Below are positions 22,574 through 64,000 of a stretch of 64,000 nucleotides of DNA, in pieces. The stretch's first letter is position 1; each line of letters opens with the position of its first letter. Source of the DNA: an uncultured delta proteobacterium (GTDB taxonomy: Bacteria; Desulfobacterota; Desulfobacteria; Desulfobacterales; B30-G6). The stretch spans positions 157,595 through 221,594 of the forward strand of contig CAWGLD010000006.1 of the NCBI GenBank assembly GCA_963823335.1, in the 5' to 3' direction. Made by a program: the position numbers and the translations under genes. Below the pieces are notes generated by a model. It did no database searches. It was not told the origin of the DNA and saw only the letters and a list, made by a program, of their open reading frames with translations.

Positions 22574-22711
22574 AGGCTTTTTGTAGATCGGTATCTCCCG
22601 ATCGGTGTTAAAAAAAGGCACTCTCTGTGACCTCTGTGTCTCTGTGGTGGAAAAAAAGAACCCTTTACCGATGCATTCTTAAACCTAAAGCCATTTAATT
22701 AGGATACTACG

Positions 22712-31612: not shown

Positions 31613-31642
31613 AAAGTTATACCGCTGGGTAGATCTTTTTTA

Positions 31643-31957
31643 TTAGCCACAGACACACACAGACCTACACAGACAACCATCGATCGACTTGATCGATGAA
31701 TACCTATCAATGCCCTGCGGGCATACTCAAGTATTCCGAGGAGTTGAAGCAAGGGACCAACACAGAAATTGGGCTAAAAAACTTTTTTGAGATAGCTTCT
31801 ATTCTTTGTCTTAGAAAATATGATGGATTTGTTCGGCCAAGTCGGCCAAACAAATGTCTGTGTTCGTCTGCGAGTGTCTGCGGTAAATAAATAAAACACC
31901 TTTCAACTCGTAAACTGTAACAACCGTCCGTGCAAGTCCGTGTGTGTCTGTGGCAAA
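31643..31957. mobile_element. Family D element, copy 3
   Basis: TTAGCCACAGACACACACAGACCTACACAGAC; hairpin loops CGACTTG and CAAGTCG; TGCCC-tgc-GGGCA; right end doubled. Confidence 0.82.
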
Positions 31958-33941: not shown

Positions 33942-33986
33942 GTGTAGGTCCCTTTTTAGACAGTAGAGGTTTAAAAGATCTTTTAT

Positions 33987-34147
33987 TTAGCCACGGACAC
34001 ACACAGACAATCACAGACATTTCTCTCTTTCGACTTGAAAGAGAGAAAAAATGCATTCACTTCGTGTCAGTATGATATGCCCAAAGGGCATTGAGATTGA
34101 TCTTCGACCATGTCGGTCGAAGATTGTCTATGTGTGTCCGTGGCTAA
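33987..34147. mobile_element. Family D element, copy 4 (short, reverse orientation)
   Basis: TTAGCCACGGACACACACAGAC...GTCTATGTGTGTCCGTGGCTAA; loops CGACTTG and CATGTCG; TGCCC-aaa-GGGCA. Confidence 0.85.
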
Positions 34148-34219
34148 AATAGAAATAAACGGATGACGGATAGCAGCCTCCAAACATACCAGCTTCCCAG
34201 CATCAACCAGCCGTCTCGC

Positions 34220-49430: not shown

Positions 49431-49672
49431 TCACCACAAAGACGCAGAGGACGCAAAGGATTTTCTTTTTTATCTTGATCGCTGAGACGCCGATCAAGAT
49501 AAACCACCATGCCCTGCGGGCAGGATAATTAATCGTAATCTTAGATAGATGGTCAGACAAACTTAAGGCAGTGAATGATTGATTTTCCGAAGGAATAAGA
49601 TCTTTTGATTTTCGGCGTCTCAGTGAAAATCAAAAAAATATGTTCTCTGCGTCCTCTGCGTCTTTGCGGTGA
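49431..49672. mobile_element. MITE-like structured element (family E, ACGCAGAGG/ACGCAAAG repeats)
   Basis: TCACCACAAAGACGCAGAGGACGCAAAG...CTCTGCGTCCTCTGCGTCTTTGCGGTGA; hairpin loops GCTGAGACGCC and GGCGTCTCAGT; mini-hairpins TGCCC-tgc-GGGCA and TTCC-gaa-GGAA. Confidence 0.85.
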
Positions 49673-59700: not shown

Positions 59701-61472
59701 TCTCGGGTACTCTGGCAGCCTGCTCTTCGAATAGCTGGTGAATGCATTTTTCAGATGGAAATTCAACCTCTGTGTTGTTCCATTCTTCGAAAAGCCGGTT
59801 TTTCTCATCAGGTGAAAGTATAGACAACCCAGCAACCTTCCGATCTAAATCCCCAGTGGCGTCCTCTAAAAAGCTGATGAACTGTGCCACAAAGCGTTTG
59901 ACATCTTGTTCCGCGATTGCCTTTGGGTCAAATATGCATCGACAAGCATCAGGATCTCTCGAGACTGCCAGCGTGAGGACGCTTCTGGATTGGGCCTTGT
60001 GCGACTCGCCATCGTCTGTCATAACAATATTTACCGGGGATACAGACAGCCCGCCATTTCCATTGTTTTGGCCCAATTCGGCATACCGTCCCCAGACGTC
60101 CAATGCATAGGTTTTATTTTGGACTGTGGATTCAATGCTTACACACAAAGCCTTCAATACATCCTCAAAACCTGCCTCGGGGTCGATGCTTACACGCAAT
60201 GGCACGTATTCTGAAAACAGGCCAACGTGCCTCCCAATTTCTGCCATCAATGCAGCGTGGCTGAATCCAACATGAAAATCATTTATGCCGCAGTGCCGGC
60301 CGATAAAAATGCCCGAAAGCGGCCGATAGAGATATCCGGAGATCACCATCGAATTTCTTGAATGCACTTAAAACAGCACCGGGTATGTGTATGGGTACAC
60401 TTTTGAACTCGAGTTTCTTTTTAAAAGCAAATTTCTTTTTTGCGTAATGCAGGTCGACAAATGTCAATGCGGATAATTGATTGACCCAATAGCTTCACTC
60501 CCGGCAATCCCGGCATTCAGTTTATCAATTTCTTGCGCATCTTCATCGGCCGGTCCATCGAACCTGAATCCCCGGCTTTAAAGAATATGTATACGTCAAT
60601 CCGGCAATGGACAAGGGCACACCGTCTATGGATGCTCCTCTGGAAATTTCCACATCATTTGTTCCCGTTGCCACCCGGATGCGTTCTTCATCGATTGCGG
60701 TGATTGTCCCGGGAGTTTCGGTCGATGGCATGTCCGTAACTGCCAGTTCCCGAATCACGAAGTATTCATCACCCGCCTTTATTTTTGGCAAACCAAGGGG
60801 ATTCCCATAAGGACCAAAATCAAGTGCTTTCACGAGGGCCGAAATTTCTTCCGCACTCCTGCGCCAATCGATCGCGGACGCCTGGGCAGGCCGCTGATAT
60901 TTTCCGTAGTATGACCGTTTGTCGGAAAGCTGATGCGTGACCTTCGCCCCACCATTGGCGAGCTCCTGCACCAGTGTGCTAAATGATGAAAGCCCGGCCT
61001 CAAAGCATTTCGCATTCAAAGAAAGAGACGTTTCCATTTCGTCCACATCGAATACGGCCTGTTTGAGAATGCCTCCTTTGTCAATTTCAGAGCTGATTTC
61101 GTGCCAGGTAACCCCATGAGCCTTCTCCCGGTTCAGGATCGCCCATGAAGTGGCATTCAGACCCGCGTATCTGGGAAGCGGCCCGTCATGAAAGTTGATG
61201 GCAGACTTGCGAGGGGTATTGATAACCCCGTCGGGCAATACGGATAGATTGGTTATACTGAAAAGATAATCATAGGGTTTTTCTTTCAGGCAATCGGGCA
61301 GGCTTTTGTTCAGTTCCAGTGTTTGGATGTCTTTTTCGGCCGCCCACTGTTTAATGGTCGGATTCGATGAAACAATGCCGAAGATATTGTGCCCGCGTTG
61401 GAGCAGTACCTCGCTGCATTTTACCAGCAGCGATTTTTCTCCTATAATATAACAGCTGAACTTTTCGGACAT
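56759..61472 (-). CDS. Formyltransferase-(degenerate C)-A-T-T-TE NRPS-like protein, broken by about 5 frameshifts (pseudogene or assembly errors)
   Basis: 60543-61472 formyltransferase (INFHDGPLPRYAGL, IDKG); 57263-60367 A domain (YTSGSTGKPKG, SFDIS, NMYGPTE, YRTGD, GYRIELGEIE), two PCPs (GGESL, GGKSI) and TE (GWCMGG). Frames switch near 60560, 60493, 60310, 57295 and 56830; the last shift gives GHEINLW..CLL-stop at 56759. Confidence 0.8.
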
Positions 61473-61574
61473 TAGGTTAGATATCCTTTTTTTCTTGTCT
61501 TCACCCTCTTAAACCTTCAGATAAGCTTTAAGTCCGGGTTTTGTTTTGTACGTCTAATCTTTAGATTATTTTTG

Positions 61575-62548
61575 CTCTCGCCCGCTGTCGCTCGAGAACA
61601 CAGAGATCACAGGGAATTATAAGGACTTTCTCTGCGGCTCTGCGAACTCTGTGAGAGGTAATATTTTACTCTCGCCCGCTGTACGCTCGAGCTCTCAGAG
61701 GTCACAGAGAACTTATTTCCTTTATCTGATTCTTGAGAAGGGAGAATCAGATAAAACCACTCAAACAATATCCTCTCTTTTTATATTGATGACTCGAGTG
61801 ATTCCGTCCTTCAAAAACGGTTCATTAAAATATTGTATTGGTCAATACACGAAGTGTTGAGAGTTTTTCCTTTTCTTTCCCACTCAAAAGAAAAGGAAAT
61901 AATTAGTTCTCTGTGACTCTGCGCACTCTGTGAGAAGTAATATTTTACTCTCGCCCGCTTCGCTCGAGAACACAGAGAACTCAGAGAAAAATACTCAATC
62001 GGTACCCTTATTAACATCGTTAATGATTCGAGTAATTCCGTCCTTCAACAAAGGTTCATTAAAATTTATCAACAGCCCGAGTGGTTTATTTGCAATTTTT
62101 AAATAGGTCAACAATTGTTTTTTATGAACTTCTTTCACTTTTTCTACAGACTTCAATTCAACAATCACCGTGTCTTCTACCAGCAAATCTAACCGAAAAC
62201 CTTGATCACTAATTTCTTTTCCACGATAGAAAACGGGGCAAGGTTTTTCTCCTTCAACTTCTATTCCTATTTGGTTTAGTTCAATGATCATGCAAGATTG
62301 ATATACAGATTCAAGCAGACCAGGTCCTAATTCTTTATGGATGCGTATTGCAGCCTTGATGATATTTGAAGATATCTGATTTAACTCCATTTGTTTAAAT
62401 ATTTAATGGTCAATACACGAAGTGTTGAAAGTTTTTCCTTTTCTTTCCCCTCAAAAGAAAAGGAAATAATTAGTTCTCTGTGACTCTGAGATCTCTGTGA
62501 GAGATAAGATTTTCCTCTCGCCCGCTTTGCTCGAGACCTCAGAGAGAG
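61575..62548. mobile_element. Head-to-tail array of family G elements (CACAGAG/CTCTGTG repeats): mini unit, deleted unit, GxxExxY-bearing unit, partial unit
   Basis: CTCTCGCCCGCT..GCTCGAG starts at 61575, 61669, 61948 and 62515; right ends CTCTG..CTCTGTGAGA near 61657, 61937 and 62503. Confidence 0.85.
61995..62390 (-). CDS. GxxExxY protein (PD-(D/E)XK nuclease superfamily, PDDEXK_3-like)
   Basis: LGPGLLESVY, RLDLLVEDTVIVELKS, QLLTYL and GLLINF. Confidence 0.95.
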   Translation of the reverse strand: MELNQISSNIIKAAIRIHKELGPGLLESVYQSCMIIELNQIGIEVEGEKPCPVFYRGKEISDQGFRLDLLVEDTVIVELKSVEKVKEVHKKQLLTYLKIANKPLGLLINFNEPLLKDGITRIINDVNKGTD

Positions 62549-62581
62549 GCTCTAATTTTTTTTTGAGACGATCAAATTAGG

Positions 62582-63398
62582 CTATGGTTTGTTTGGTTGA
62601 TGCGTTGCCATGAACTTCTGCTGGGCAGCACGAAGCTTTCTGACGGCTTCGCTGGGGATCTCCGACAGACCCGAAGCTGGTACGTCAATTTTGCCGGTTC
62701 GATCGGGATGGGTTTGCACACACACGGATCCGGCCGGGAATTGGCCGCTAAAGTCTATATCACCCTGCATCAGGATTTGTGCCGGAACCCCCATTACCGT
62801 CGCACCGGCAGGAACATCCTGGACCACCGCGGAGTTCGCACCAATCGTTGCCCAGGGCCCCACCTTGAGATCCGGCATGATCGAAGCGTTTGTCCCCACA
62901 TACACGCCGTCACCGAGCTGAACGCGGGCATTGATTACGGCACCGGGCGCAACCACACATCCTCTTCCGACATGGCATCCGTGACCCACAAGTGACCGCA
63001 TCAAGGCCACCGATCCCGCCCCCACCGTCGCGTTCGCACACAGTTGGGCGCCCGGGTAGACGGTGATATCTCCATTGAAATCAACCCCCGAGGTGTCGAT
63101 ATCCGGATTGATAAGTGCACGCCAGAGGCAGACCGAATTCCTTGATTCTGTTCAAGGCGGACAGGCGTGCCTTAGTAGTCCGCGCCACCATGTTGGATAC
63201 CTCGTCAACATCCGGATCGGCGTGGGCAAGCATGCTGAAAGGCCCGGCTATCTCGATACCGAGTATCGAACGGCCATGTATTGCAGGGTTGTCATCCAGA
63301 ATGATCACCCTATCCCACCGGTTCTGGGCTTTGTTGACGGTCAGGGCCAGCCGGACCCCTTCAGGGTTCCCGGCGCCACATAGATACAACGTTTTCAT
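62582..63398 (-). CDS. NeuD/PglD-like sugar acetyltransferase (left-handed beta-helix), frameshifted near 63120
   Basis: N-terminal LYLCGAG..ILDDN; continues in another frame as ALINPDID.. hexapeptide repeats, IGANSAVVQDVP..VMGVPA. Confidence 0.8.
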
Positions 63399-63416
63399 TG
63401 CAATTTCCTTTCAGCA

Positions 63417-63458
63417 ATAAAATCGTGAAACGATTTCATGTAGCACGACTTCGTCGCT
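63417..63458 (+). repeat. Family C element, copy 7
   Basis: ATAAAATCG-tgaaa-CGATTTCAT gtag CACGAC-ttc-GTCGCT, upstream of the start at 63398. Confidence 0.72.
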
Positions 63459-63468
63459 TAAAATTATC

Positions 63469-63720
63469 TTCTCACAGAGTCCGCAGAGCCGCAGAGAACT
63501 AATTATTTCCTTTTCTTTTGAGATGAAAGAAAAGGAAATCTTCTCAACACTTCGTGTATTGACTGAGGTATTCGAACAGGGATTTGAACGCGAAAATATC
63601 TTATAGAACAAATCCGAAGGAATTGAGGAGTTTTGTCTGATTTTCCCCCTCGAAAAATCAGACAAAAAATAAAAATATCTCTGAGTTCTCTGTGTACTCG
63701 AGCGATAGCGGGCGAGAGTA
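63469..63720 (-). mobile_element. Empty family G element in inverted orientation
   Basis: TCTCACAGAGTCCGCAGAGCCGCAGAGAACTAATTATTTCCTTTTCTTT..CAACACTTCGTGTATTGAC..CTCGAGCGATAGCGGGCGAGAGTA, the reverse complement of both family G ends, with no ORF. Confidence 0.85.
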
Positions 63721-64000
63721 AAATTATTCGGATCTTCTCCCACTTTATATGAAAATAACTATTGGAAGATCTCTGATTGTTAGCATCTTCTATTCATTAT
63801 CTGTAATCAGCTTGGAATGTAATTTTTATATACGTGGTCTCTTTTAAGGAGCCAACAATTCGTTGTGCCCAGCTGATCGGTCATGTTAGTTGACGCGCTC
63901 GTGGCTTCAGTTGTGAATCGACCTCCAAAATGAATAGCAACATCCGTCTTTTTTTTGTAAAATACTTTTATGTTGTTTGTTCAATCAATTTGTATCCCAT

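Follow-up and report, generated by a model that had tools for sequence, protein, structure and literature searches.

The GxxExxY (PDDEXK_3) proteins form a large family without an assigned function, and the locus described here raises the question of why one of their genes lies inside a repeat and whether gene and repeat belong together. In the window, by which we mean the whole stretch of DNA analysed (64,000 nucleotides from an uncultured delta proteobacterium, the final 64 kb of contig C6 in an assembly of 11 contigs and 4.37 Mb), four units of one modular repeat stand head to tail at 61575-62549. The third unit contains an intact GxxExxY gene, and a further, gene-less copy lies nearby in the opposite orientation. 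Judged from sequence comparisons, the link between the GxxExxY gene family and inverted arrays of short words is strong and widespread. The reading that we tentatively prefer is that the repeat is a selfish element whose full-length form would encode a nuclease recognising the element's own word arrays, with the gene-less units as its deletion derivatives.

The scaffold of the units was derived from repeat finding, alignment of the five copies and pattern look-ups, and is described in the direction of the nuclease gene, which for the array means the minus strand. Units share one layout: an arm of two or three CRCAGAG-type words, an interior, an arm of complementary words, a box of 21-23 bases and an A/T spacer of about 10 bases (Table 1). 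The four head-to-tail units and the inverted solo copy reported in the initial annotation were all recovered where it had placed them, although its fourth unit consists of a box and one arm only. Unit 3 is nearly full-length; the other four copies (unit 2, both stubs and the solo copy) are derived by deletion.

The relationship between units 2 and 3 is most clearly shown by the 46-bp gene remnant in unit 2. This matches positions 62020-62065 of the intact gene at 41 of 46 bases, and recalculation agreed with the earlier count of three synonymous changes among the five differences; the other two are conservative (F/L and V/I), and a test for selection would need more than these five differences. 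The deletion in unit 2 joins a short A/T string immediately ahead of the start codon to a similar one at about codon 109. Unit 2 had been described as a deleted unit, and it does carry the remnant on the common scaffold, but it is not unit 3 with a hole, because it keeps inner hairpin 1, which is absent from unit 3 and present in the solo copy. Units 2 and 3 are therefore separate deletion products of a fuller ancestor. The shared scaffold and the gene remnant thus establish the proposed series of full-length, internally deleted and gene-less forms as real.

Table 1. Coordinates of the repeat units and associated features in the window
Feature	Position	Strand	Details
Stub unit 1	61575-61656	-	Box 61575-61596, short word arm, 12-base interior, word arm 61628-61656
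A/T inter-unit spacer	61659-61668		Recurs at 61938-61947; variant at about 62503-62514
Unit 2, internally deleted	61669-61935	-	Box 61669-61691, word arm, hairpin 1, gene remnant, hairpin 2, word arm 61907-61935
Inner hairpins of unit 2	61723-61753 (hairpin 1); 61866-61899 (hairpin 2)	-	
GxxExxY gene remnant	61786-61831	-	46 bp from the 3′ end of the gene; in unit 2
Unit 3, gene-bearing	61948-62502	-	Box 61948-61968, word arm to 61987, gene, hairpin 2 62434-62466, word arm 62474-62502
Intact GxxExxY (PDDEXK_3) gene	61995-62390	-	131 aa; in unit 3
Stub unit 4	62515-62549	-	Box 62515-62535 and one word arm only
Solo gene-less unit	63470-63718	+	Opposite orientation; word arm 63470-63498, hairpin 2 63506-63538, hairpin 1 63631-63667
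Box end of solo unit	63678-63718	+	Word arm 63678-63696, box 63697-63718
9-base direct repeat flanking solo unit	63459-63467 and 63719-63727	+	

The units are mosaic. The box end of unit 3 is nearest to the solo copy (47 bases, 96%), and its other end is nearest to unit 2 (111 bases, 93%). When folded, the solo copy gave a z-score of −5.16 (none of 200 shuffles as good) and stub 1 together with unit 2 gave −7.20 (none of 100 shuffles as good); the gene-bearing unit reached only −1.50. The solo copy is crossed by a 110-aa frame with a GTG start (63411-63743, minus strand), which we judged to be non-coding because the length of the box centre differs between copies; neither this frame nor the other two that read across the repeats (61811-62017 and 61651-61860) has a Pfam family. 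The 9-mer that flanks the solo unit occurs three times on that strand in the whole window and is similar to the inter-unit spacer.

The possibility of mis-assembly, raised in the initial annotation, was answered in part. One independent sediment contig (151 bases, 10 differences) covers 61727-61877, which is the interior of unit 2 including the remnant. Among the contigs of four marine-sediment runs that matched the region, none crosses the whole array, so the tandem order rests on the assembly. These contigs pile up on the element ends, and mostly continue into unlike DNA. No sequencing run matched as much as half of the short sequence words of the region, and none of the runs listed as matching was an RNA run.

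The gene in unit 3 was readily assigned to its family, as had been claimed, with profile matches well above the cut-offs. The protein matched PF13366 (PDDEXK_3) with an E-value of 8.2e-42 and 142.7 bits (cut-off 22), spanning profile positions 2-117 of 117, and TIGR04256 (GxxExxY) with 147.4 bits (cut-off 35). The GxxExxY motif (G24, E27 and Y30) and the D...ExK catalytic set of the PD-(D/E)XK superfamily (D68, E78 and K80) are intact. Among 29 relatives, down to 33% identity, the residues G22, G24, E27, Y30, E37, Y55, D68, E78, K80, Q92 and G105 are invariant. An AlphaFold2 model (pLDDT, the predicted local distance difference test score, 92.9) gave a predicted restriction-endonuclease-like PD-(D/E)XK fold, for which the top Foldseek matches were distant: Cas4 (4r5q, E 2.9e-4), lambda exonuclease and Hjc, with TM-scores of about 0.4-0.5. 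A sequence search of solved structures with the 131-aa protein found no relative. In the library of defence and phage proteins the only matches were remote ones to the Cas4 core (E about 1e-4), and no defence family in that library claims the protein. The part of the family-defining survey that concerns PDDEXK_3 gives its function as unknown and records multiple transfers (PMC3424549). The nuclease is the sole gene of the element, in which there is no recognised transposase.

If the gene belongs to the repeat, similar repeats should flank its relatives. The flanks of GxxExxY genes were scored by taking 300 bases from each side, reverse-complementing the downstream stretch and finding its best local match to the upstream one, using the 30 nuclease open reading frames (ORFs) with sufficient flank from 41 related genomes and, as controls, other ORFs at the same loci. 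Scores of at least 28 were obtained for 23 of the 30 GxxExxY ORFs and for 5 of the 63 controls. The matched arrays include CCGCAGAG, GCGCAAAG, CACAAAG, CCGCAGAC and CACGGAT. For a wider sample, a single-protein search gave 80 loci from more than a dozen phyla, including Desulfobacterota, Acidobacteriota, Planctomycetota, Bacteroidota, Verrucomicrobiota, Alphaproteobacteria, Abditibacteriota and Bacillota. At 39 of the 73 usable loci (80 fetched) the flank score was above the 95th percentile of cross-locus controls (medians 40 vs 19), which are themselves inflated by CACAGAG-type words common to many loci. CRCAGAG words also accompany homologues in other phyla whose identity is about 43-57%. 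The box is more narrowly distributed: of the 10 closest homologues (65-76% identity), 7 have it on the strand of the gene and downstream of it, and it is absent from all 63 others. The initial annotation had named a lack of such ends at GxxExxY genes elsewhere as the objection to its proposal; this objection fails, because most of them carry inverted word arrays.

The words and the gene also tend to occur in the same genomes. PDDEXK_3 was present in 26 of the 41 related genomes, and CRCAGAG doublets in 31 of them, with the reversed control pattern occurring 0-1 times per genome. The number of doublets rose with the number of PDDEXK_3 matches (Spearman's rho 0.59 over the 41 genomes, which kinship makes non-independent), and the median was 13.5 in genomes with the gene compared with 1 in those without. 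Among 151 near-complete genomes of this class, 74 have PDDEXK_3, and about a quarter of the matches are fragments. Several N-terminal fragments stop precisely at the end of a contig, which would be expected of assemblies broken by identical copies. A strong bias towards 3′-anchored copying was considered from a first sample, with 11 C-terminal and 2 N-terminal fragments, and was dropped when the 151 genomes gave about 21 and 13; that tally was made by hand, with contig-end fragments and paired pieces of one broken gene removed. The box is patchy in the order, occurring in 7 of 301 representative genomes and 6 of 155 genera.

The arms are conserved as words rather than as each other's pairing partners. 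For 61 box-bearing units, the mean score of a unit's own 3′ arm against its upstream 300 bases was 18.4, against 18.2 when arms from other units were used; in only 8 of the 61 did its own arm rank in the top 5%. Conservation of this kind argues for a factor that reads the sequence, and weakens a reading in terms of an RNA stem alone.

Nuclease lineage follows word type in a complete related genome (G242), where five GxxExxY genes fall into four lineages of 30-44% identity, each with a word of its own (CACGGAA, CACGAAG, CACAAAG or CACGAAT); the same word encloses both members of the one pair with 88% identity. Arrays that are uniform internally but differ by lineage within one cell are predicted by recognition by the element's own protein. 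In the four genes of this genome (G242:C1, loci L242-L246) that have both arms, the arms lie a few to about 35 bases from the start and stop codons, giving a minimal element of roughly arm, gene and arm (about 450 bp), and the outermost bases are ACCAC...GTGGT in three of the five elements. A table of word type against crude protein class was too noisy and was not used.

The box is 21 nt long, and its centre obeys a DNA mini-hairpin rule, GCGNAGC/GCGNNAGC. According to a review of mini-hairpin DNA, the consensus is d(GCGNAGC)/d(GCGNNAGC), and it is found at the single-strand priming sites of phages G4, St-1 and alpha3 and in RSF1010 ssiA (PMC13037366). The one-strand sequence rule here is identical to that at the priming sites; unlike there, the motif forms part of a repeat in the chromosome and is recognised by the sequence rule alone. 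In searches allowing 1-5 variable bases, with the last loop base fixed, 101 distinct boxes bearing words had a variable stretch of two bases in 90 cases and three bases in 11, and 94 had G as the first loop base. When all three loop bases were left free, 301 genomes gave 12 matches (GAA in eight, AAA in two, GTA and GGA in one each), none of them flipped, and the rule was satisfied in 10 of the 12. Among the five local boxes, one fits GCGNAGC (GCGAAGC), two fit GCGNNAGC (GCGATAGC and GCGACAGC) and two have neither form (GCAAAGC and GCGTACAGC). In one relative (L168), the box centre is a longer hairpin. A strand-specific mini-hairpin suggests that a single-stranded form of the DNA may be involved.

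The exact box pattern was found at a minimum of 126 loci in sediment metagenomes; the flanking sequence covered extended up to 1,500 bases to either side at 80 of them and 300 bases at the others. Word arrays directly adjoin the box in 101 of 135 distinct box contexts. Arrays with one gene-bearing unit among gene-less ones recur in unrelated contigs (L062, L044, L167 and L170), and in L062 the whole layout of the window is repeated, with gene-less units on both sides. Two other loci (L078:480-840 and L083:1340-1760) have flanks that are 96-99% identical around an intergenic element that has diverged strongly, with a box in one only; together with the many PDDEXK_3 fragments, this shows that turnover is rapid. 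In one metagenome contig, more than 10 boxes are interspersed with small genes, nucleotidyltransferase/HEPN-like pairs among them. The orientation of the units with respect to long frames on either side is weakly biased, with 8 in the same and 5 in the opposite direction where the two sides agree, on crude frame calling.

The units described here form a small family among the very many elements of this kind in the genome, inside which two kinds of gene occur, the nuclease gene being one. Scanning for inverted repeats less than 1 kb apart gave 155 candidates, many of which have an arm period of 7-9 bases and varied words. The genome has three PDDEXK_3 genes. Besides the one in unit 3, there are two on contig C5, close to its end and separated by 3 kb, among repeats of like design but different sequence, with GTCTGYG/GTCCGTG-type words and GNA-loop hairpins. 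The second kind of gene encodes a four-helix bundle (PF05635), for which there are 20 matches in the genome, several inside such inverted repeats. A 577-bp hairpin element with this gene is present at C2:12905-13481, C4:31246-31822, C4:218298-218874 and C4:341919-342495, with a partial copy at C7:100363-100821. Its 131-aa ORF has the same first 60 residues and the same profile score at all four loci, and this four-locus element is a sign of the recent spread of a nuclease-less sister element.

Y1 transposases were considered as trans helpers and were rejected, since they showed no spatial link to the elements. The genome has eight matches to PF01797 (Y1 transposase-like), in frames of up to about 450 aa (e.g. 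C7:406630-406968 and C4:395371-395691). Seven of the eight were examined; six have no hairpin candidate within 2.5 kb, and one has two candidates, of other word types.

The C5 region (C5:488400-498830; loci L001 and L003) also merits description. Its genes are interleaved with at least seven structured repeats of the GTCTGYG/GTCCGTG family, and it holds the two GxxExxY genes together with a four-helix-bundle gene (C5:488603-488917). By eye, the others are presumably sugar-modifying genes, a nucleotidyltransferase-like ORF and a transposase-like gene in more than one frame. In the C5-type nuclease lineage (L001:1462-1926; also L011, L016, L034 and L035), the last codons run through the GNA-loop hairpin of the element and give a recurrent ...PEGH/PAGH tail, so that the end of the gene overlaps the cis module.

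The array is flanked by a formyltransferase gene (60543-61472, minus strand) and a hexapeptide acyltransferase gene, also on the minus strand and in two frames, and the nuclease gene has the same orientation as these adjoining genes. The acyltransferase gene appears to be broken (62582-63398, minus strand): a 147-aa frame with hexapeptide repeats (62582-63025) and a 105-aa N-terminal frame without a Pfam family (63081-63398) are in different frames and are separated by a 55-base gap, which could reflect a frameshift, a pseudogene or an assembly error. An ORF just upstream of the region is, by eye from the sequence, presumably non-ribosomal peptide synthetase-like. Contig C6 terminates 270 bases beyond the solo copy. 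In 40 related genomes the best match to the formyltransferase had only 32% identity, so that no orthologous site lacking the element could be identified. An Rfam search of 61000-64000 at E-values up to 1 gave no match. Promoter-like sites in the region were not in excess (4 compared with 3.7 expected), and there was one terminator-like site compared with 2.4 expected. Further word-array hairpins lie in the window at 22623-22646, 31636-31894, 33986-34148 and 49431-49672; their types are CACAGAG-type doublets, GCCACAGAC-type elements resembling those on C5 and a CGCAGAG/CGCAAAG element, and none has a box.

How might such an element work? Read on the gene strand, a full unit would comprise a 5′ arm built from two or three CRCAGAG-type words, an inner hairpin, the GxxExxY gene, a second inner hairpin, a 3′ arm of complementary words, the 21-nt box with its GCGNAGC mini-hairpin and the A/T spacer. 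The nuclease would be the element's own enzyme, recognising the word arrays that belong to its element type and cutting at or near the element ends. Repair of the break or nick by copying would then propagate the gene-bearing units and, in trans, the gene-less ones, often beside existing units, to give arrays. A single-stranded DNA form may be involved in the copying. Binding, cleavage, copying and the single-stranded intermediate are all steps that we infer. From the interpretation in the initial annotation, the series and the gene-repeat link are retained, and the mobilising role of the nuclease is carried forward as a hypothesis.

A number of observations weigh against a nuclease that spreads its own element. 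With one mismatch permitted in the 12 most conserved bases, the host genome contains five boxes of this type, all at one 2.2-kb locus, and BLAST of whole units against the genome gave weak partial matches elsewhere; confinement to a single locus means that there is no sign of recent dispersal in this genome. Sister elements with the four-helix-bundle gene have spread, so the nuclease is not needed for that branch. Among the matches listed, a PDDEXK_3 ORF was present at only 2 of the 126 metagenome box loci (L044 and L062), and in L044 gene and box are on opposite strands. A 5′ arm is missing from the gene units in L162 and L170, and three related genomes have at least 10 CRCAGAG doublets and no PDDEXK_3 match. 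Flanking duplications are inconsistent, as the solo copy has the 9-base direct repeat and none is visible at the gene-bearing solo relatives L164 and L169. The match between lineage and word would also be produced by simple co-inheritance of gene and arms. Arm mismatches in 21 units showed no strand bias, with 25 of the G-T type and 29 of the A-C type. For the box, nearest-neighbour DNA folding gave the expected shape with an energy no better than that of shuffled sequences (z −0.58 to +0.20); because standard folding energies do not single out the box, its assignment as a mini-hairpin depends on the sequence rule.

Several of these points are shared by the main rival explanation, in which the nuclease is a passenger or a homing-type selfish gene in word-array repeats that are spread by a host function or by the enzyme of another element. 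The interior of the repeat would be a harmless seat, and the nuclease may cut empty copies and be copied into them by repair. This would account for the large excess of gene-less over gene-bearing units, the presence of two unrelated small genes in the same kind of scaffold, the variable orientation and position of the gene (L044, L162 and L170), the three genomes with word arrays and no nuclease match, and the frequent gene fragments, which resemble a cycle of invasion, decay and loss. However, a mere lodger need not show its own word type for each nuclease lineage even within one genome, the compact elements of G242 consist of arm, gene and arm alone, and no other candidate enzyme was found beside the elements, the single Y1 locus with hairpins among the seven examined having other word types. 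We regard a passenger gene as rather unlikely. Improbable, in our view, is a function at the RNA level like that of the ORF-bearing intervening sequences of 23S rRNA, where the arms would pair in an operon transcript and be cut by RNase III, releasing or stabilising the message of the small ORF while the flanking genes keep working, so that the repeats persist as harmless or useful punctuation. The position of the array between same-strand genes, the like orientation of the nuclease gene and the lack of a promoter-like excess are consistent with this, as are the strong folding of the gene-less units as RNA (z −5.2 and −7.2) and the existence of stem-enclosed, ORF-bearing intervening sequences in 23S rRNA. 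In contrast, the sense-strand arm mismatches show no excess of the G-U type (25 vs 29), a unit's own arms pair no better than those of other units, the solo copy is inverted relative to its neighbouring gene, the orientation bias in the metagenome loci is weak (8 vs 5), and there is no Rfam match. The box loops also fit the DNA mini-hairpin rule better, as most have three bases (90 of 101) and several of the four-base loops are GNNA and not GNRA.

A low probability likewise attaches to the idea that the array arose by local tandem duplication through unequal recombination, followed by differing losses and with no transposition at this site. The occurrence of all five box copies within 2.2 kb, the mosaic units, which are consistent with recombination between neighbours, and the fact that units 2 and 3 each lack a part kept by the other would all be explained in this way. 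One copy, however, is inverted and lies two unrelated ORFs away from the array, similar one-gene arrays occur in the four unrelated contigs, and the same type of unit is found in many metagenome contexts, so that the family moves even if the local copies did not. Least probable of these is an integron-type cassette system, with the junction modules as folded single-strand recombination sites, a recombinase elsewhere and the nuclease gene as one cassette among others. Head-to-tail units with a structured junction between them, the metagenome contig with more than 10 boxes between small genes, the elements between successive genes in the C5 region and the strand-specific hairpin motif would be expected of such a system. 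Against it, the arms of solo units face inward around an interior and do not form a bare junction, reading the alignment revealed no GTTRRRY-type core (RYYYAAC / GTTRRRY) at the boundaries (intI was not searched for), and one of the genes between the C5 elements is, by eye, UDP-glucose 4-epimerase-like.

The selfish element that we prefer was compared with known systems. In the repetitive extragenic palindromic (REP) repeats and their paired form (REPINs), the gene of a Y1 HUH transposase, the REP-associated tyrosine transposase (RAYT), is flanked by its own short, gene-less hairpin repeats. The REPIN-RAYT system shares with the present locus the ratio of one gene to many gene-less hairpin repeats, and a repeat sequence that differs by gene lineage; it differs in that the protein here has a PD-(D/E)XK fold (neither HUH nor PF01797), the gene is inside the repeat unit, and the arms are tandem words of 7-9 bases, whereas REPIN-RAYT repeats are a single palindrome. 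Like miniature inverted-repeat transposable elements (MITEs) and autonomous insertion sequences, the units have terminal inverted arms and gene-less copies with internal deletions that are far more numerous. Unlike these, they have no known transposase family and no consistent target duplication, their word-array arms are conserved across phyla, they cluster in tandem, and the family is not dispersed in this genome, its dispersal being visible only across metagenomes and other genomes.

Small restriction-fold nucleases that serve the spread of their own element are exemplified by the homing endonuclease I-Ssp6803I and by TnsA of Tn7. Here, unlike in those cases, there is no intron or intein and there are no partner transposase genes, and neither protein was among the Foldseek matches listed. 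Intervening sequences that bear ORFs are found in the 23S rRNA of Leptospira, and the PF05635 four-helix-bundle gene is typical of such sequences. The intervening sequence of Coxiella burnetii 23S rRNA, with its S23p ORF, is reported to be enclosed by a stem (PMC4990558). The small stem-enclosed ORF, regarded as selfish, and the PF05635 gene of the sister elements are points of likeness; the differences are that the element lies outside rRNA, between formyltransferase and acyltransferase genes, that its cargo is a nuclease, and that the mismatch and arm tests gave no sign of selected pairing of the RNA strand.

Arrays of the heptamer TAACTGA have been described in intergenic regions of Beggiatoaceae, cyanobacteria and Bacteroidetes, and an as yet unnamed word-binding protein and mobility were proposed for them (PMC4679880). 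As here, these are tandem 7-base words in the intergenic spacers of many phyla, but they are direct repeats upstream of genes, whereas the words here form inverted pairs around a gene or its remains; the term "nuclease" is absent from the main text of that paper. A literature search, in which subscription journals were outside the coverage, found no description of a repeat element carrying GxxExxY; a paper in which the term GxxExxY occurs touches on it just once and briefly, and titles and abstracts on the four-helix-bundle family describe no such elements.

A broader conjecture, which we put forward as speculative and unlikely in its full extent, is that GxxExxY proteins may be the word-reading endonucleases of a very widespread and undescribed class of miniature mobile elements. 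Each lineage would have its own 7-9-base word in both arms as an address, the elements would be copied via single-stranded DNA with a priming-type mini-hairpin, and gene-less word-array hairpins, possibly including the heptamer repeats, would be their non-autonomous offspring.

The gene-repeat link strengthens the case for GxxExxY/PDDEXK_3 as the genes of selfish elements. A defined DNA partner, consisting of lineage-specific word arrays and structured modules, makes the function of these proteins testable with a 131-aa protein and short oligonucleotides, and the present locus is a handy test case, with full, deleted and empty forms side by side. Should the nuclease indeed read the words of its own element, this family would amount to a natural library of small, sequence-specific nucleases, and the same elements would explain common intergenic repeats that break metagenome assemblies and punctuate operons.

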